Of a stretch of DNA of 32,962 bases, positions 4,008 to 23,058 are shown piece after piece; positions within the stretch are counted from its first letter, which is position 1; every line of letters starts with the position of its first letter. A model generated the notes under the pieces. It searched no databases and had not been told where the DNA came from. It saw only the letters and a program-made list of their open reading frames with translations. This DNA is from an uncultured Planctomycetales bacterium. GTDB lineage: Bacteria; 4484-113; JAFGCY01. The stretch covers positions 1-32,962 of the forward strand of contig CAYXMN010000005.1 in the NCBI GenBank assembly GCA_964465955.1, written 5' to 3'. The position numbers were made by a program, and so were the translations under genes.

Positions 4008-5102
4008 TTATAAATGCTGCCAGCCCAGCTCGCCCAGCATCAGCGTGCGCCCGTCCTCGCCGCGGTAGAAACAACCTTCCTCGGCGGGAACAACATAGCC
4101 TAGGCGTTGCACCTGCGCGGGGCAGCCGGCGAAATCCGCCTCGCGCACCTGCGGCGGCGTGGTAAACAACAACTGGTAGTCTTCCGCGCTAGCCAGCAAG
4201 TACTCCGCCAGGCTGTGATAACGCGCTGCTTTCCGGTCGAGCTGGTAGCGCGGCGGCAGGTTGAACGCGCGCGGCCCCCCGCCGCGCCAAGGCTTGTGCG
4301 CCGCGGCGAACGCCGCCAGCGCCGGATTGAAGCGGTAGCGCGCAAAATCCAGCAACAGCCCAGTCTGCGAGGCGCGCGCCAGTTGCAGCACGCACTGCGC
4401 CAGGCTGTCCGAGGTATCGAGGCACGCCGTGACCCTGCCCTGCTCGCGCAGCCAGCGCCCCGCCTCGAGCTGCGCCCGCGGCTGGCGGTGCGCGTTAAGC
4501 GCCGCGGGTTCCGCCGCCCCCGCCTCCCCGGCGCACAATAGCGCCAGGCCGATGCTGGAAAGCCCGAGCGCGCCGGTATGCCATAGCACATCGCCGGGCT
4601 GGGCCCCGGAGCGCAGCAGCGGCTCTCCGGCGGGCGCCTCGCCCAACACGGTGAAACCCACCGCCCACTGCGGCCCGCGCACCGTGTCGCCCCCGGCGAG
4701 GATTACGCCGCTCTCCGCCGCCGCTTGGGCCACGCCGTCCAGCAGCGCGTCCACGTCCGCGCCGCTGGTCTCCGGCGGCACCGCCAGGCAGCCGAAGGCA
4801 AACACCGCCGTCCCGCCCATCGCCGCGATGTCGCTCAAATTCACCGCCAGCGCTTTATAACCCGCGTCAGCCAGGCTCAGCCAGCGCCGATCGAAGTGCA
4901 CGCCTTCCACGAGCAAATCCGTGGTCACCAGCCAGTCGCGGGCGTTAAGCGCGCACCCGGCCAAGGCCGTGTCGTTGTCGAGCCGCAGCACCGCGCAGTC
5001 GTCACTGATGCCGACGGCGAGGCGCGGATCGCTCGCCGCGAAACGCCGGCGCAGGCTGTCGATAATCAGGGCTTCTGTAGTTGAAACAGGCTCGCTGGGC
5101 AT
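4008..5102 (-). CDS. thiL: Thiamine-monophosphate kinase (AIR synthase-related family)
   Basis: N-terminal signature GISDDCAVL ... WLVTTDLLVEGVHFDRRW ... AGYKALAVNLSDIAAMGG is typical of ThiL. AGGA lies 5 nt upstream of the ATG. Confidence 0.85.
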   Translation of the reverse strand: MPSEPVSTTEALIIDSLRRRFAASDPRLAVGISDDCAVLRLDNDTALAGCALNARDWLVTTDLLVEGVHFDRRWLSLADAGYKALAVNLSDIAAMGGTAVFAFGCLAVPPETSGADVDALLDGVAQAAAESGVILAGGDTVRGPQWAVGFTVLGEAPAGEPLLRSGAQPGDVLWHTGALGLSSIGLALLCAGEAGAAEPAALNAHRQPRAQLEAGRWLREQGRVTACLDTSDSLAQCVLQLARASQTGLLLDFARYRFNPALAAFAAAHKPWRGGGPRAFNLPPRYQLDRKAARYHSLAEYLLASAEDYQLLFTTPPQVREADFAGCPAQVQRLGYVVPAEEGCFYRGEDGRTLMLGELGWQHL

Positions 5103-12575: not shown

Positions 12576-13215
12576 CCTCCTGCGGGCGCACCGTGCCGGC
12601 GAGGGCCCCGCTAGCCACGAGCTGCTGCGTCGCGGCGCGCGCCAGGTCTTGCAGCACGCGGCGGGCCAGCTGGGCCGTGTCTTTGGTGCGGGCGCTATAA
12701 GCCTTGGGCTTGTCAAAATCGGCGATGCCGTCCGCCACGACTAAGCCCGTTTGGCACTCGACCAGCCGCCAGGACATCGCCCCCTTGGCGGTGGGATAAC
12801 TCGAACCCGCGTTGGGCCAAGTGCCGCCGGTGATCTCCACCCCGCCGAACACGCCGGTCAGCAGCGCTTCCACTTCGAAGTGCGCCCCGAGCTTGACCGC
12901 CTCGTCCAGTAGCAACGGGCCTGCGGGCAAGTCGAGCGCCGCGGGATCGACCAGCACGAACTCCACCTCGGGCAATTCCTTTTCAAGCTGAGCCTGCCAG
13001 ATTGTGAGCAGATCCGCCGCTCCGTCGCGCAAGCCGCCGTCATCGCGCAGCGGCGCCAGGCCCACCCGGGTGAACTGCCCGCTGCTGGCCGCGGCGTCGG
13101 CCGATTCCGCCAGCGTCCCGCCCTCCGCCAAGGCAGTCCCGGCCCGCAAGCTGAGCGCCGCCAGCAGGGCCAGACCCAAGCATCGGATGAGGTGAAGGGT
13201 GCGTACCCGGAGCAT
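12562..13215 (-). CDS. Hypothetical secreted protein
   Basis: Signal peptide MLRVRTLHLIRCLGLALLAALSLRAGTALAEG. No confident domain. The stop overlaps the tmk start by 14 nt. Confidence 0.55.
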   Translation of the reverse strand: MLRVRTLHLIRCLGLALLAALSLRAGTALAEGGTLAESADAAASSGQFTRVGLAPLRDDGGLRDGAADLLTIWQAQLEKELPEVEFVLVDPAALDLPAGPLLLDEAVKLGAHFEVEALLTGVFGGVEITGGTWPNAGSSYPTAKGAMSWRLVECQTGLVVADGIADFDKPKAYSARTKDTAQLARRVLQDLARAATQQLVASGALAGTVRPQEDGRE

Positions 13216-13251
13216 ATCAGACTATTCTACCGCCGCGCCAGAGCGCCGGGC

Positions 13252-13857
13252 TTAGCCCTTCAGCGCGGCGAGCAGGCGGCGGATCAGCTCCGCCGCGTCG
13301 TCGCCGGCGTAATCCTTGCGCGCTCTGGCCAGCGCCGCCTCCGCTTGCGCGCGGGGGAACCCGAGGGCCACCGCCGCCGCCAGCGCGTCCGCCGCCGCAC
13401 CGGCGGGCTGCTGCGCCGGGCCGCCTGCCACCTCGGCATGCGCGCCGAAATCTTTGGCCACCTTCTCGCCGAGTTCCAGGCAGATCTTCTTGGCCAGCTT
13501 GGGTCCCACGCCGCTGACCGTGGTCAGCAGCCGTTCATCGCCGTCGCGCAGCGCCGCCACCAACGCCGGCGCGCCAAGGTTGAGCAGGTTCAGCGCCACG
13601 CGCGGGCCGACGCCGGAGCCCGAGATCAGCACCGCGAATAAATCCCGGGCCAGCGGGCTGGTGAAACCGTAAAGCCTGAGCGTATCAGACTGCGTGGCCA
13701 GGTGCAGATACGTGCTGAGTTCCGTCAGCTCACCCTGGCTGAGCTGCGCGGCGTGCGCCGGCGGCAGGTACAGCTCCAGCGCCACCGGGCCGCAGGCGAA
13801 CAAGACGCGCCCGTCGAGCCCGATCGAGACCACGGTGCCATGCAGGCTGGCGATCAT
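13252..13857 (-). CDS. ruvA: Holliday junction DNA helicase subunit RuvA
   Basis: MIASLHGTVVSIG ... LRLYGF ... ARDLFAVLISGSGVGPRVALNLL ... VSGVGPKLAKKI (HhH motifs). The start overlaps the ruvC stop (ATGA). Confidence 0.9.
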   Translation of the reverse strand: MIASLHGTVVSIGLDGRVLFACGPVALELYLPPAHAAQLSQGELTELSTYLHLATQSDTLRLYGFTSPLARDLFAVLISGSGVGPRVALNLLNLGAPALVAALRDGDERLLTTVSGVGPKLAKKICLELGEKVAKDFGAHAEVAGGPAQQPAGAAADALAAAVALGFPRAQAEAALARARKDYAGDDAAELIRRLLAALKG

Positions 13858-14418: not shown

Positions 14419-15177
14419 ATGGGGTACGGTTTTCGCTACGTATTAGGCGCAGTGGTTTTAATCGCCGTGTTGTTCGCTGGGCTTTCGCTGTTGCCCACGG
14501 CGATCAACCAGTGGCTAGTTCCCGCCGGCACCAGCCAGTCCAAGACCGCGGCCAGCGCGCCCAACCCGGCGGACCAAGCCCAGCAAGGCGCCTACAAACT
14601 GCCCGTCCCCGCCCCGCCGCAACCGCCCACCAAGCGCACGCCCGGCGGCGTGTCGAACCCGCCGCGCAAACCCGGCCCCACCGCTTCGAGCAGCGGGCAC
14701 GCGCAGCCAGCCGGACCGGCAGGCGGCGCTCCCGGCGGCGGCGGACCGGGTAATACTCCCGGCGCCGGCTCTGGCGGCATCATCGGCAGCCTGCCCGGCG
14801 GCGCCACGGGTGGAGGCAACGCCGGCGCGCCCGCCAGCCGCCCCCCTGTCACCGGCGGGCCCGCCAGCTCCGCGCCCGCGCCGCAGTGGTTCAAACTGGG
14901 CGGCGCTCAGCCGGATGACGGCCAAGCCTTGAATGCCATCGGCTGGCGCCAGGCGCGGTTTAGCCTGATCCTGCATAAGGAACCGGCCGGCGAGCCGTTC
15001 CGCGCCGCCACGAAAAGCAAAGCGCCGCTGACAATCGTCAAGGGCTCCCGGTTATGGGCCATCCGCCAGGAGGGGGAGTGGATCCTGGTGCGCTCGCCGG
15101 GCCGCACCATCGGCTGGGTCAATGCGGGTGATTTGGAGCCGATGTCGAGCACGCTGCAAATGCTGTACGGCGGGTAA
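14419..15177 (+). CDS. Membrane-anchored Pro/Gly-rich protein with C-terminal SH3b-like domain
   Basis: N-terminal TM segment VLGAVVLIAVLFAGLSLL. A low-complexity P/G/A linker of about 130 aa follows. The C-terminus GSRLWAIRQEGEWILVRSPGRTIGWVNAGDLEP resembles bacterial SH3. Confidence 0.6.
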   Translation: MGYGFRYVLGAVVLIAVLFAGLSLLPTAINQWLVPAGTSQSKTAASAPNPADQAQQGAYKLPVPAPPQPPTKRTPGGVSNPPRKPGPTASSSGHAQPAGPAGGAPGGGGPGNTPGAGSGGIIGSLPGGATGGGNAGAPASRPPVTGGPASSAPAPQWFKLGGAQPDDGQALNAIGWRQARFSLILHKEPAGEPFRAATKSKAPLTIVKGSRLWAIRQEGEWILVRSPGRTIGWVNAGDLEPMSSTLQMLYGG

Positions 15178-15301: not shown

Positions 15302-16753
15302 CTAGTGCTTGATCATCTCCCAATATGCCTGAGCTTCAAACTCCGGGCTGTTAAAGTCATCATGGCAGCCCAGGCAGCCTGCCACGCTCCCGCGGTCAAT
15401 GCTGAAGCCTCCGGCGGCGGCGCCGCCACCGCCCTGCATCAGCTCGGCATGCGCGCGCCCCGGCCCATGGCAGGACTCGCAGCTCACCGCGCTGACCGCG
15501 TCGCGCGGCTCCAGCGGGTCGTAGCCGCCGTTATCCAGCAGCGCGACCGTGTGGCACTCCAGGCAGTCCAGGCTTTCCTGCTCGTTCTGTGCCACCAGGC
15601 TCGCCAGGGCGTGGCTGTGCGCCGACTTGAGCCAAACCTGGTAGGCGCCGGCGTGGCAAGCGGCGCAGGCATCGGCACCCACATAGTCGTAGACCGGCTG
15701 TGCCTGGGGCATGTATTCGCCGCTCATTGTGAAGTTGTTGTCCTTCCAGCCGTCCTTGCGCACTTGCTTGGCCAGGCCCAGCCGCTCGCGAGCGCTGGCT
15801 TGCTCGCTGGTCAAGCAGGCCAGCACCTGGTCATCATCCAGCCAGTAATCAGCCAGCTCCTGCGACCAGGTGAACGGTGTTGTGCGCCCTTCGGTGAACT
15901 GCGCCATGGTCAGTGTGGTGATGCGCGGGACGGGCGGGGGCAGCACCGTCGCGCCCCCGCGCGGCGCCTGCCCCGCCGGCTCGCCAATCACGACGTCCAC
16001 CGGCAACCCGGCGAGCTGCGCCACCACCTCGGGCGGCTGGCCCAGGGCGGAGACAATCACGTGTGCGCCTTCGGGCAAGGCGTCGAGCACCGTCTGCACA
16101 CTCGCCACGGGTTCGGCCAGCTCCCACCACCCCGCCGGCGCCACGCCGGGAATCGCCTCATAGGCAGTCACGCCCACCACATACCAGCCGGAGCATAGCT
16201 GCAGGAACTTGCCGATCTTCACTCCATCAAGCTTTACCGAGAGGTTGCAGCTCGCCAGCGGCACCGGCGGATCGGCAAATGCGGCCTGCGCATCCGCGGC
16301 GTTCAAGTTGAGCTCCGCCGCGCCGATGACTGCCCCCGCCGCACCGATAACTTTAAGGATGTCGAGATGCGTGCGCGCGCGCAGGTCGGGGAAGTGCGCC
16401 TCCGGGTCGGCGAAGCTGCCGCAGTCGAACACCACCAGCGGCGGATCCGCGCGGGTGCCCTCCGGGTAGAGCACCATCTCGATGCGATACTGCGGATCGC
16501 CATTCGGGTCGTAGTTATCGAGCACTAAACCAAGGCGCGGCAGACCGCCGCTTTGGTGGGTGTCTCAGCCGCAGGGCCGCTGGAAGCCGCGCAGGTCGCC
16601 GAGGTAGGCCAGCGTCAGCGCGTCCGGCGCGGCGGTCACCTGCGCCCCGCGCCCGGCGGTTTCCCTGGCCGGTTGCGGGCAGGCGGCGAGCACCAGGCCG
16701 GCCAGCACCGCCGCCAGCGTAGTCAGCCGCGAGTTCAAGCGCGCATACCGCAC
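15302..16753 (-). CDS. Predicted selenocysteine-containing lipoprotein: degenerate metallophosphoesterase-like N-domain fused to a tetrahaem c-type cytochrome (TGA at 16567..16565 read as Sec)
   Basis: Track ORFs 16565..16753 and 15302..16525 are in the same frame and joined by a single TGA: ...LRGFQRPCG-TGA-DTHQSGGLPRLGLVLDNYD... The upstream part is a lipoprotein signal peptide (LVLAAC). The downstream part has CAACH, CLECH, CESCH and CLGCH (about 15361-15667) but no signal peptide of its own. The start is GTG at 16753. Confidence 0.6.
16529..16567 (-). promoter_or_regulatory. Candidate bacterial SECIS element (UGA plus downstream hairpin)
   Basis: The minus-strand RNA is UGAGACACCCACCAAAGCGGCGGUCUGCCGCGCCUUGGU. 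With U of UGA as 1, the lower stem is A11-U39, C12-G38, C13-G37, A14-U36 and A15-U35. An internal loop follows. The upper stem is G17-C31, C18-G30, G19-C29, G20-C28 and C21-G27. The apical loop is G22 G23 U24 C25 U26. Confidence 0.5.
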
Positions 16754-16759
16754 AGGTGA

Positions 16760-16765
16760 ATTATA
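16760..16765 (-). promoter_or_regulatory. -10 box TATAAT 6 nt upstream of the cytochrome GTG start (leaderless arrangement)
   Basis: The minus strand reads TATAAT TCACCT GTG. There is no SD and no good -35. Confidence 0.4.
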
Positions 16766-16819
16766 CGCAGTGCGCCTAGGACTGGCGGGTTGTTTGATCG
16801 ATCCGCCGGAGAGCCGCGG

Positions 16820-20230: not shown

Positions 20231-21757
20231 TTATGCGGGCGCGGCTTTGCCCGCGTCAAGGCCGGCGAGCCTGGCGAGCGTATCCAGCCCCGCGGAGACC
20301 AGCGCACGCTGCGACGGCCCGCGCAGCATGGAGCGTGGCTGAACCAGGATGCGCGCTAGCGCGGCCAGCGCATCTGCCGTGGTTTCCGCCGCGACCGCCA
20401 GCCCGCTGTCCAGCTCGGTGCCGTAATGGTCCCGCGCCGCCGCGTCAAGCACCAGCGAATGCATTCCGGCCAGCGCCGCCTCACGCACTACCGTGCTGGA
20501 GCGCGTCACATGCGCGTCGAGGCGCGTTAGCAGCAGCGGCAGCGGCGCGTCGGCGGCGAGGTCCAGCTCGTAGCGCCCCGGCGCGCATTGCTCCAGTGCG
20601 GCTCGCACCGCCGCGCGCTCCCCGGCCTGCACCGGATGCGGGCGCACCCACCAGTGCCAGTCCGCCGGCGAGGCGGCGAGCAGTTGGCGCAACCCCGGCG
20701 TTAGCCCCAAGTCCCATTGCAGCGAGAGCAGGATGTGCCTGCGCCCAGGGTGCGCGGCGAGCGCGGAGTTGATGCGCGCCAGTTCCTGCCGCGCCGCCGG
20801 CGTGTCCGCGCCTTCCCACAGCGCTTGCCAGGGATTGCCGCCAACCAGCGCGCGTGCGCCTTGCGCCCCGGCCCATTCATTGATTTGCAACGCACTCTCA
20901 GCATCCCAGCACCAGAACACCGTCGGCAACGTGGTGTAGCCGCCAGCCGGCGCGCACTGCCACGGGCCGTAGGCGAAGTGGTAACGCCCTTGCACGCCGT
21001 GCTGCACGTCCACGCACGGGAGGCCCAGCCGCCGCGCGGCCAGGCACAGCGCCATGCCCTCCATGGAGTAGTAGTACGTCGTCAGCGCGAGCTTGGCCCC
21101 GCTGGCCTGGAGGTAGCGCGAGAACAGCCCCGCCCAGCGGTGGAGGAGGCCAGCCTGGCGCGCCAGGAGCGGCGGCGTCAGACCCGGCATGCCCGCGCCA
21201 GTGGCTTGCACGGCTGCGACGATGTCGCGATACTGCGCAAATTGCTCCACGACAGCGCTGCGGACGGCGCCGCGCACCCGGTTGCGGAGGTTGGCCAGGT
21301 GCAGCGCGCTTTGGATGTAACGCGTGGGCAGCGCGCGCGGTGTGCGGAATGCGCCGCTGGGGCAATACTCCAGACCGAGGCATGTTAAGCCGCGCCGGGC
21401 AAGTTCCTCGCGCAGGTAGTCCAGCAGGCGGTCGTAGTACGCCCCGCCCGCCGGCGAGCGGTACGCGCTGTGGTGCAGCACGAGAACGTCAGCGCGCTGC
21501 GCGACCACCGCGTTCTGCACTCTGTCGGTCTGGACCGCCAGGCGCTGGGCCAGCAGCGCTTGAACTAACTTGCGCATTCCCCGTGGCGTGGCATGGGACG
21601 CGCTACCGCTTCCGCTCACCTCGCCTGTTACACGCAGCGCGTTGGCCAGTTGGAAGCGCACCGCCGGCCACAGGAGCACGTCTCCGGCGTGCCAGGTTTC
21701 CAGCCGGCATTCCCGCTCCAGCTCCCAAATCAACTCCATGTACTCCTGCGGCCGCAT
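20231..21757 (-). CDS. Putative polysaccharide biosynthesis enzyme, GT-B-like (weak resemblance to Capsule_synth KpsS/KpsC or TagF-type transferases)
   Basis: The track ORF extends to 22096 across the flippase 3' end. ATG 21757 (MRPQEYMELIW) overlaps the flippase stop by 1 nt. The motifs ILLSLQWDLG and WWVRPHP resemble the LQvxxD and KxHP motifs of capsule transferases. The family call is tentative. Confidence 0.45.
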   Translation of the reverse strand: MRPQEYMELIWELERECRLETWHAGDVLLWPAVRFQLANALRVTGEVSGSGSASHATPRGMRKLVQALLAQRLAVQTDRVQNAVVAQRADVLVLHHSAYRSPAGGAYYDRLLDYLREELARRGLTCLGLEYCPSGAFRTPRALPTRYIQSALHLANLRNRVRGAVRSAVVEQFAQYRDIVAAVQATGAGMPGLTPPLLARQAGLLHRWAGLFSRYLQASGAKLALTTYYYSMEGMALCLAARRLGLPCVDVQHGVQGRYHFAYGPWQCAPAGGYTTLPTVFWCWDAESALQINEWAGAQGARALVGGNPWQALWEGADTPAARQELARINSALAAHPGRRHILLSLQWDLGLTPGLRQLLAASPADWHWWVRPHPVQAGERAAVRAALEQCAPGRYELDLAADAPLPLLLTRLDAHVTRSSTVVREAALAGMHSLVLDAAARDHYGTELDSGLAVAAETTADALAALARILVQPRSMLRGPSQRALVSAGLDTLARLAGLDAGKAAPA

Positions 21758-23058
21758 CAGGACTGCTCTCCCGGCATCCGCCGCCACAGCGCCCACGGCA
21801 TCGGGTGCGCGCGCTGCACGAGCATAAAGGTCAGGCTGAACTTCACTGCGTAGCAGGCCAGCGTGGCCCAGCACGCGCCGATCGCGCCGTAGCGCGGCAC
21901 CAAGAGCCAGCACAGCCCGAGGTTGACCAGCGCGGCCGTGCTCGTGGTATAGGCGAGGAAACGCGTCTTGCGCGCAAAGAAGATGTAGTTCGTGACGAGC
22001 AGGTACATCCCGTCGAAGGCGAATCCCAGCGCGAGCAGCAGCACGTACTGCGCCGCGGCGAGGAACTTCGGGCCGAGCACGATCCCCGCTAGCCACGGCG
22101 CGAGCGTGCCCAGCAGCACGGCGGCCACCGCCTCCAGGCCGAAACCGGCGTAAGTGCCGATGACGAGCTTGCGCAGCACGGCGGGCTGGTTCGCTTTCAA
22201 CCGCTCAAACAGCCACGGCACATAGGCGCGGTTGAACGCGTCGTTGGCCATGTACAGCACCAGCGCGAGCTGCTGGCCGGCGGTGAACAGGCCGGTGCCG
22301 CCCAGGCCCTCCACGCCCGCCACGAATGAGCGCGACGTCAGCGCGATGGCGGCGTTGCCCAAGGCGTGCGGCAGCAGCGGCAAGCCAAAGCTGAGCGCGG
22401 CGCGCATCTGGCCCCAGTCTGGGCGCCAGCGCGACAAGCCGGCGGCCTGCTGCAGCACGAGGGCCAGCGCACCGGTCGTGCTGGCCGCAAGGAGCTGGCC
22501 CACCACGCGCCCGCTCCAATCCCAATGCAGTCCCACGATCAGCCACACGCTCAGGCCGAAGTTGAGCAGCGAAAAGCCGAGGTTGAAGGCGATGTAGGGC
22601 CAGGGCATTTTGCGCACTTGCCACAGCGCGAGCATGGTCTGGCCCAGCGCCATGCCGAAAGCCGCCAGCGCCACCGCCCACAGCCACTCGCGGGGGAACT
22701 GGATCAGCCGCTCGATCAGCGGCCCGGCCAGCTGCAGCAGCCCAAGCAGCAGCACGGCCGCCGCGCTCATCAGCAGCGTGCAGTTGCCGACATAGCGCGG
22801 GAAGTCGGACTGCTCGCGGTCGTAGTACTGCCGCTGGATTGCGCCGTGCAGGTTGAGGTTGGCCAGCGGCGTGATGAAGTTCTCCAGCGAAGTGAACAGG
22901 CCGATCAACCCGTATCCGGCAGTGTCGAGCACGCGCGTCAGCACAGGCAGCAGCACGAACGGCACCAGCCGGTTGGCCAGCCCGCCGATGAAATACACCG
23001 AGACGGTTTTGGCCAACCCTGCGCCAGGGATTGTGAACCGCCGGGGTCGATCGCTCAT
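21757..23058 (-). CDS. Wzx-type oligosaccharide flippase (MOP superfamily polysaccharide biosynthesis protein)
   Basis: About 12 TM segments. The N-terminus KTVSVYFIGGLANRLVPFVLLPVLTRVLDTAGYGLIGLF is typical of Wzx/RfbX proteins. Confidence 0.85.
   Translation of the reverse strand: MSDRPRRFTIPGAGLAKTVSVYFIGGLANRLVPFVLLPVLTRVLDTAGYGLIGLFTSLENFITPLANLNLHGAIQRQYYDREQSDFPRYVGNCTLLMSAAAVLLLGLLQLAGPLIERLIQFPREWLWAVALAAFGMALGQTMLALWQVRKMPWPYIAFNLGFSLLNFGLSVWLIVGLHWDWSGRVVGQLLAASTTGALALVLQQAAGLSRWRPDWGQMRAALSFGLPLLPHALGNAAIALTSRSFVAGVEGLGGTGLFTAGQQLALVLYMANDAFNRAYVPWLFERLKANQPAVLRKLVIGTYAGFGLEAVAAVLLGTLAPWLAGIVLGPKFLAAAQYVLLLALGFAFDGMYLLVTNYIFFARKTRFLAYTTSTAALVNLGLCWLLVPRYGAIGACWATLACYAVKFSLTFMLVQRAHPMPWALWRRMPGEQS

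Follow-up and report, generated by a model that had tools for sequence, protein, structure and literature searches.

The window analysed here, a complete contig of 32,962 bp from an uncultured Planctomycetales bacterium (CAYXMN010000005.1), carries on its minus strand, from 16753 to 15302, what is very probably a single gene for a periplasm-facing lipoprotein of ~483 residues, a divergent member of the 'UshA-like (PCGU)' selenoproteins. The gene is interrupted by one in-frame TGA, which we infer almost certainly encodes selenocysteine (Sec). This reading is carried by homologues that run unbroken across the TGA, by a column in which Cys and TGA alternate among related loci, and by a candidate selenocysteine insertion sequence (SECIS) hairpin just downstream of the codon.

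Read directly from the DNA, the frame spans 484 codons, from a GTG at 16753 to a TAG at 15304..15302, and its sole internal stop is the TGA at 16567..16565, codon 63. The list of open reading frames (ORFs) cuts the locus into a 62-aa ORF (16753..16565) and a 407-aa ORF (16525..15302) that share this frame; 13 sense codons separate the TGA from the GTG at 16525, just as a first-pass annotation of this DNA had described. The nucleotide context, LAYLGDLRGFQRPCG-TGA-DTHQSGGLPRLGLVLDNYD, reads FQRPCG-TGA-DTHQSGGLPRL as protein; the residues around the stop, P60-C61-G62-TGA63, form the CxU arrangement to which the same annotation had drawn attention. By pattern inspection the N-terminus, MRYARLNSRLTTLAAVLAGLVLAAC, begins with basic residues, continues into a hydrophobic core and reaches an LAAC lipobox at codons 22–25 that fits [LVI][ASTVI][GAS]C, in agreement with the lipoprotein signal peptide placed there earlier. 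The predicted lipidated N-terminus would be Cys25. LAAC also occurs in the independent orthologous locus L001, described below, and a Cys behind the hydrophobic stretch is shared by L001 and the majority of the clade's full-length homologues.

When the joined sequence was used as a query (U replaced by C), a search that the first-pass annotation had itself put forward as a check, 29 relatives were recovered. Full-length homologues, namely P0002 (63% identity) and P0005–P0015 (31–41%), cross the junction without a break, which bears out the earlier view of the two ORFs as one gene read through the TGA. The junction is also the peak of conservation in the N-terminal half, where the homologues read RGFQRPCGC-x3-Q-x-GGLxRL with Cys in the TGA column, exactly the PCGC..(5)..GGL.R motif that had been put forward at first pass. 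The three closest entries, P0001 (the window's own call), P0003 and P0004, are N-terminally truncated in public protein sets. On the contig of P0003, judged by ORF layout only, a 62-aa ORF stands in frame with the truncated main ORF. P0004 lies on L001, an independent 2.7-Mb ENA contig (ERZ21869602, ctg94833l) from which 21 kb was drawn for comparison, and is 64% identical to the window protein. The L001 DNA shows the same arrangement, a 62-codon ORF, then TGA (L001:9956-9958), then DSHQSGGLPRLG, and gene order around it matches that of the window, running through MBOAT, two hypothetical genes, the target, a divergent gene, RuvC and RuvA.

The TGA column was then followed through more distant loci. 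A degenerate DNA-pattern scan of JGI metagenomes, which did not recover P0002 or P0003, yielded six further clade members, two with TGA (L084 and L087) and four with TGC. Scanning the GTDB representative genomes gave 80 loci, none of them a close orthologue, the best being 38–39% identical. When the GTDB loci are pooled with the window, L001 and the other loci, the P-C-x-[C/U] column can be read at 74 loci, of which 63 have TGC or TGT and 11 have TGA. The TGA forms from outside the window's clade belong to Fibrobacteraceae, Acidobacteriota, Krumholzibacteriia and unclassified metagenome-assembled genomes (MAGs). At the level of sequence this distribution is the classic signature of a Sec/Cys pair, which the first-pass annotation had suspected.

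These comparisons bear directly on whether the TGA is a mistake or a lesion. The window is a single metagenomic contig, in which a sequencing or assembly error might create a stop; independent assemblies from other samples carry the same codon in the same place, and the probability of an error is negligible. The same TGA in the same column of the syntenic L001, and again in L084 and L087, means that it is neither chance nor error. A pseudogene, in which a Cys codon (TGC or TGT) had mutated to TGA and left the gene dead or dying, would require one substitution (TGC to TGA), and the clade does include a Cys orthologue, P0002. Against such decay, the TGA is shared by four clade members that are 35–64% identical and come from different samples, and no second stop or frameshift was found in the 483 codons of the window gene, which retains all four CxxCH motifs and its other invariant residues. 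When the window is compared with L001, codons 40–76, on both sides of the TGA, have non-synonymous (dN) and synonymous (dS) divergences of 0.15 and 0.39, compared with 0.31 and 1.09 for the remainder of the gene. This pattern (dN/dS of ~0.3–0.4 either side of the TGA) indicates that both flanks are coding, with extra synonymous constraint near the TGA, and makes a pseudogene very unlikely.

A different way to divide the locus is into two genuine products, a 62-aa lipopeptide ending at the TGA and a 407-aa protein starting at GTG 16525. ORF callers and public protein sets treat the locus in this way, hence the truncated P0001, P0003 and P0004. Attachment of c-type haem requires export, yet the 407-aa product would have no signal peptide to accompany its four c-type haem sites. 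The 13 intervening codons are moreover conserved as protein, being identical to L001 at 11 positions, and they encode the family's invariant GGLxR motif; the called starts differ among orthologues (codon 77 in the window, approximately codon 106 in P0003). We therefore hold two products to be highly improbable; like a pseudogene or an assembly error, they are a poor explanation of the locus.

A candidate SECIS hairpin lies immediately 3′ of the TGA. In bacterial selenoprotein genes such a hairpin is expected about 16–37 nt past the UGA, with G/U at its apex. Counting from the U of UGA, its core stem pairs +17..+21 with +27..+31 (16551-16547 with 16541-16537) and closes an apical loop, GGUCU, at +22..+26 (16546-16542); a lower stem reaching 16557/16529 is found in the window only. 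The four TGA forms of the clade share a stem of 5–6 bp (+16/17..+21 with +27..+31/32) that closes the GGUCU loop, with standard pairs in 83% of pair cells and compensatory changes at two stem positions (G-C to U-A and C-G to G-C), whereas in the same register just 53% of cells are paired in the clade's six Cys forms. The second Gly of GGL is encoded by GGT in 4/4 clade Sec forms and 0/6 clade Cys forms, and GGT makes up only ~10% of Gly codons in these genes. Across the 74 loci, GGTCTGC at +22..+28 was found in four of the 11 Sec forms, which are all four of the window's clade, and in none of the 63 Cys forms. The same GGUCUGC stands at +22..+28 in Escherichia coli fdhF, whose sequence was verified as 100% identical in 5,412 E. 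coli genomes. The fdhF SECIS loop contains G23 and U24, which we take to be its SelB contacts. From register, covariation and loop identity, the clade hairpin is likely a SECIS; the case is argued on these features and not on stability because the energy tests, given below, are unremarkable. Outside the clade, the seven TGA forms have a common 9-bp hairpin that starts at +23 and places its loop at +32..+34, with several compensatory changes. A simple scan also marked the hairpin core (16537-16551, minus strand) as a terminator, a stem with GCCTTGGTTT behind it; L001 has no such T-rich tail, and the match is probably coincidental.

The protein can be placed in a catalogued family. A 2008 analysis of Global Ocean Sampling data described a 'COG0737, UshA-like' CxU selenoprotein with 76 Sec sequences and 92 Cys homologues, and ranked it among the major selenoprotein families (PMC2398784, Zhang & Gladyshev). 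The family is included in two later reviews, the latest of which cites NF041198 (PMC9312934, PMC13188914), and the same review tables contain ExtKL and a second UshA-like family, with a CxxU motif (PMC9312934, PMC13188914), so that haem or UshA-like scaffolds bearing Sec have precedents. The first-pass annotation had known of no described family with this architecture; NF041198 and these papers (PMC2398784, PMC9312934, PMC13188914) overturn that part of it. The window protein, like each of the 18 aligned homologues, finds its best curated NCBIfam match in NF041198 (UshA_like_PCGU, 'UshA-like (seleno)protein'). The NF041198 profile, of 519 positions, includes the C-terminal haem module, and residues 349–473 of the window protein align to positions 397–517. 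Scores fall in order through L012 (Sec, Fibrobacteraceae; 299.8 bits), L017 (Sec, unclassified MAG; 276.4), L065 (Sec, Acidobacteriota; 247.6), L008 (Cys, Verrucomicrobia; 240.5) and L005 (Cys, Blastopirellula; 186) to the Sec forms of the window's clade, L084 (136.5), L001 (115.2) and the window protein itself (113, U replaced by C). This clade is the most divergent, and is marked by G-F-[QEH]-[RK] ahead of PCG. By these matches the window gene is a divergent new member of the catalogued UshA-like PCGU family and no new class.

Several results weigh against this interpretation. The window protein scores well below the curated NF041198 cut-off of 275 bits. The candidate hairpin is no better in energy than dinucleotide shuffles (z = -0.7), and its minimum free energy is no better than that of synonymous-codon resamples in any Sec form. 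It is short, its pairing is partly forced by the Gly-Gly-Leu-Pro codons, and only four sequences stand behind it. A search of Rfam returned nothing at gathering score and noise alone at E values up to 10, and the window lacks the canonical 9-bp hairpin, its own candidate lying at a different position. The 33-kb window contains no selA, selB, selC or selD, and no tRNA gene was found in its 32,962 bp. The only AIRS-family ORF, at 4008-5102 (minus strand) and considered as a possible SelD, is ThiL (TIGR01379, 228 bits against a cut-off of 184; the SelD model gives 69 bits against 125). A crude scan for other in-frame-TGA genes, based on G+C content at third codon positions, missed even the target gene and so carries no weight for or against. 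As a taxonomic marker, MeaB has its nearest match in a MAG labelled 'Planctomycetales' at 70% identity, too distant for its Sec status to be borrowed.

The remaining possibility is that the TGA is read through without selenocysteine, by a near-cognate Cys or Trp tRNA or a suppressor tRNA, to give a full-length Cys or Trp protein. Selenocysteine insertion is, after all, itself deduced, the hairpin is unexceptional by energy alone, and the Cys form is functional in most homologues. However, genome-wide reassignment of the codon is ruled out, since TGA is the normal stop of 7 of the 26 window ORFs, the Pfam-supported RuvC and Tmk among them. The column, furthermore, is the Sec/Cys pair of a curated selenoprotein family, and the GGUCUGC loop at fdhF spacing follows the TGA forms of the clade so closely, with no instance among the Cys forms, that we regard readthrough of this kind as very unlikely. 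Decoding of codon 63 as selenocysteine is thus the reading we retain.

The protein encoded by the joined frame has two domains. Fold evidence was taken from the AlphaFold model of the Cys orthologue P0002, in which the predicted local distance difference test score (pLDDT) is above 90 across most of residues 31–330, and the top Foldseek matches of this model are CD73 and E. coli UshA (E ~1e-13). The family profile matches the Thermus thermophilus 5′-nucleotidase 2z1a (E 3e-8) and cytochrome c554 1bvb (E 1e-21) in the PDB. In the alignment to 2z1a, the dimetal ligands of the GD, GNHE and GGH motifs are not kept in the window protein. GD is replaced by G[N/S] in the family and falls in DCGSF in the window, GNHE becomes G[S/A]AE (GAAE in the window), and the His of GGH is lost (G-x-x in the family, IGEP in the window), while motif I, DxH, reads DLR in the window. 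Given these replacements, the N-terminal domain is a metallophosphatase fold without the dimetal site. The Cys-Gly-Sec loop comes directly after the first strand and motif I, and adjoins the would-be metal position.

The C-terminal haem module matches PF13435 at 46.3 bits (cut-off 20.8, E 8e-12). Its four CxxCH sites, C363/C366/H367, C397/C400/H401, C425/C428/H429 and C460/C463/H464, are invariant in 18 homologues, and the module keeps three more invariant His residues, H379, H435 and H483. By analogy with c554, this set would suit three haems with bis-His ligation and a fourth ligated in another way. The haem sites, and the architecture as a whole (signal peptide with lipobox, degenerate phosphoesterase domain and tetrahaem module), are as the first-pass annotation had outlined them. 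PDB entry 6i5b, considered as a whole-protein relative, is OcwA, and its match is confined to the haem modules. This type of haem module is also fused to a thiol-redox domain in P0016, a 675-aa metagenome protein in which a c554-like multihaem module and a peroxiredoxin (AhpC/TSA, Redoxin) domain are combined.

A mechanism can be proposed from these features. SelB and Sec-tRNA would decode UGA63 as selenocysteine, directed by the short hairpin just 3′ of it, whose GGUCU loop would present G23 and U24 at an fdhF-like distance. The product would be exported by the general secretory pathway and lipidated at Cys25, and its haems would be attached in the periplasm. The N-terminal domain is predicted to fold as a 5′-nucleotidase/metallophosphatase that has lost its dimetal ligands, and Cys61-Gly-Sec63, in the loop after the first strand, would stand in their place. 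Cys61 and Sec63 may form a selenenylsulfide-type redox or substrate-binding centre, between which and periplasmic or membrane carriers the four-haem c554-like module would carry electrons.

More speculatively, the 'GF(Q/E/H)RPCG[U/C]' clade (the window, L001, L084, L087 and P0002–P0015) might form a functionally distinct subfamily. Its dimetal site would be wholly replaced by Cys-Gly-Sec together with the clade-specific Cys111 and Cys169, the resulting centre would be wired to the four haems to make a periplasmic selenoenzyme that acts on a substrate new to the fold, such as sulfur, selenium or arsenic species, and the clade's own fdhF-like SECIS would have been gained independently of that in the canonical family. 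We consider this combination possible and, taken as a whole, rather doubtful.

Table 1 Features of the predicted selenoprotein gene and its surroundings (window coordinates)
Feature	Coordinates	Strand	Basis
Predicted complete lipoprotein selenoprotein gene, 483 sense codons plus TAG	15302..16753	-	Single open frame apart from one TGA; full-length homologues cross the junction
Encoded degenerate 5′-nucleotidase-like domain plus tetrahaem c554-like domain	15302..16753	-	Homologue P0002 63% identical over 92% of length
GTG start codon	16751..16753	-	First start codon past the upstream stop; homologous position in L001 is ATG
Predicted signal peptide ending in lipobox L-A-A-C	16679..16753	-	Lipobox codons 22-25 at 16679-16690; sequence inspection
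P-C-G-U motif	16565..16576	-	TGA 16567..16565 is codon 63, proposed selenocysteine; motif that gives NCBIfam NF041198 its name
Predicted UshA/CD73-fold 5′-nucleotidase domain, degenerate metal ligands	15764..16636	-	~Residues 40-330; AlphaFold model of P0002, Foldseek, profile against PDB
Tetrahaem cytochrome c554-like domain	15305..15709	-	Residues 349-483; PF13435, 1bvb
CxxCH motifs	15653-15667, 15551-15565, 15467-15481, 15362-15376	-	Haem domain
Candidate SECIS hairpin	16529..16557	-	Folds, covariation, loop identity
TATAAT hexamer	16760..16765	-	6 nt ahead of the GTG start, inside the 11-nt block CGTATAATTCA conserved in L001

Upstream of the gene, the block CGTATAATTCA (window 16754-16770, minus strand; L001:9757-9769) is kept amid an otherwise diverged intergenic region, and the TATAAT within it ends 6 nt before the start codon in both loci, GTG in the window and ATG in L001. 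There is no Shine-Dalgarno sequence ahead of the start codon, and a consensus promoter scan found no -35/-10 pair upstream. The conserved block with its TATAAT, together with the missing Shine-Dalgarno sequence, suggests a leaderless or near-leaderless transcript from the gene's own promoter, of which TATAAT would probably be the -10 box.

Directly downstream of the target, a divergent 252-aa ORF (14419-15177, plus strand) is heavily enriched in Pro, Gly and Ala over its first 170 residues and matches no Pfam or NCBIfam family. An opposite-strand ORF of similar size stands at the same place in L001 (222 aa) and on the contig of P0003 (251 aa). Further along, L001 carries ~3.8 kb extra between RuvA and the next common gene (L001:13146-16834 compared with 13215-13252 in the window), which encodes an IS1595-family transposase, a P63C-domain protein, an unannotated ORF, a SocA_Panacea (antitoxin-like) protein and a 101-aa ORF, and looks like a mobile insertion. 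On the other side of the target, two long minus-strand ORFs of the window, 20231-22096 and 21757-23058, overlap by ~340 nt. Their counterparts in L001 (521 and 433 aa) abut with no overlap, so the true start of the 621-aa window ORF probably lies at a codon further downstream.

In the wider family, a conserved same-strand cluster was seen from -6 kb to +5 kb around the gene (L005, L008, L019, L024, L031, L047 and ~25 other loci), mostly with Cys forms, in Planctomycetota and Verrucomicrobiota. Upstream are two large unannotated proteins (~670 and ~970 aa) and a DUF4159 protein; downstream is a ~1,100-aa protein that combines thioredoxin with HEAT repeats. In Armatimonadota a DUF1573 protein is found in place of these. 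No such neighbour lies near the window gene.

The consequences are chiefly for annotation. The stored forms of P0001, P0003 and P0004 are a truncated 'Cytochrome_C554' protein with a separate 62-aa ORF upstream. Since the clade scores under the NF041198 cut-off, this truncation is systematic within it, and the clade, which is stored as a signal-less 'cytochrome' and an orphan 62-aa ORF, will be overlooked by any census of selenoproteins or exported multihaem proteins. To our knowledge, the UshA-like PCGU family has no experimentally established function. The loss of the metal ligands beside strict retention of the Cys-Gly-Sec loop and the haems suggests redox chemistry at the CxU and argues against phosphoester hydrolysis. 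The corrected annotation and this hint of chemistry leave the picture of existing selenoproteins unchanged.

Among known systems, the NF041198 family is the closest. The window protein shares with it a signal peptide, a 5′-nucleotidase-fold domain and a C-terminal CxxCH module, the P-C-G-U/C motif shortly after the first beta-strand with GG[LV]xR five residues on, and the alternation of Sec and Cys in one column. It differs in its more degenerate metal-ligand motifs and in its distance from the canonical Sec members, which score 276–300 bits. Its candidate SECIS loop lies at +22..+26 rather than at +32..+34 on a 9-bp hairpin, and the DUF4159 gene upstream and thioredoxin/HEAT gene downstream in the wider family (22–31 loci) are not beside the gene in the window or in L001. 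ExtKL (NF040886) and NF049981 likewise combine Sec with a multihaem or UshA-like scaffold. The window protein reaches only 18.3 bits against the 250-bit ExtKL cut-off, and it has no match to NF049981, whose motif is CxxU and not CxU.

At the fdhF SECIS of E. coli, the likeness is GGUCUGC at the same offset, with G23 and U24 in the apical loop at the same spacing. The window hairpin differs in having no bulged U17, a loop of 5 nt instead of 4, and an unlike stem sequence with a core of just 5–6 bp.

At the level of fold, the N-terminal domain resembles the calcineurin-like metallophosphoesterases UshA, CD73 and 2z1a, and also SoxB. Unlike UshA, CD73 and 2z1a, the window protein lacks the dimetal ligands, and the C-terminal substrate-binding domain of UshA is replaced by the haem module. 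The window protein has no match to SoxB (TIGR04486) at E values up to 1; only canonical NF041198 members do, at 85–94 bits, far under the 550-bit cut-off. This weak resemblance, present in the canonical members and absent from the window protein, hints at sulfur chemistry. The haem module, finally, has the four CxxCH motifs and c554-like spacing of cytochrome c554 of Nitrosomonas europaea (1bvb, PF13435), here as the C-terminal module of a larger lipoprotein rather than as a free electron carrier.

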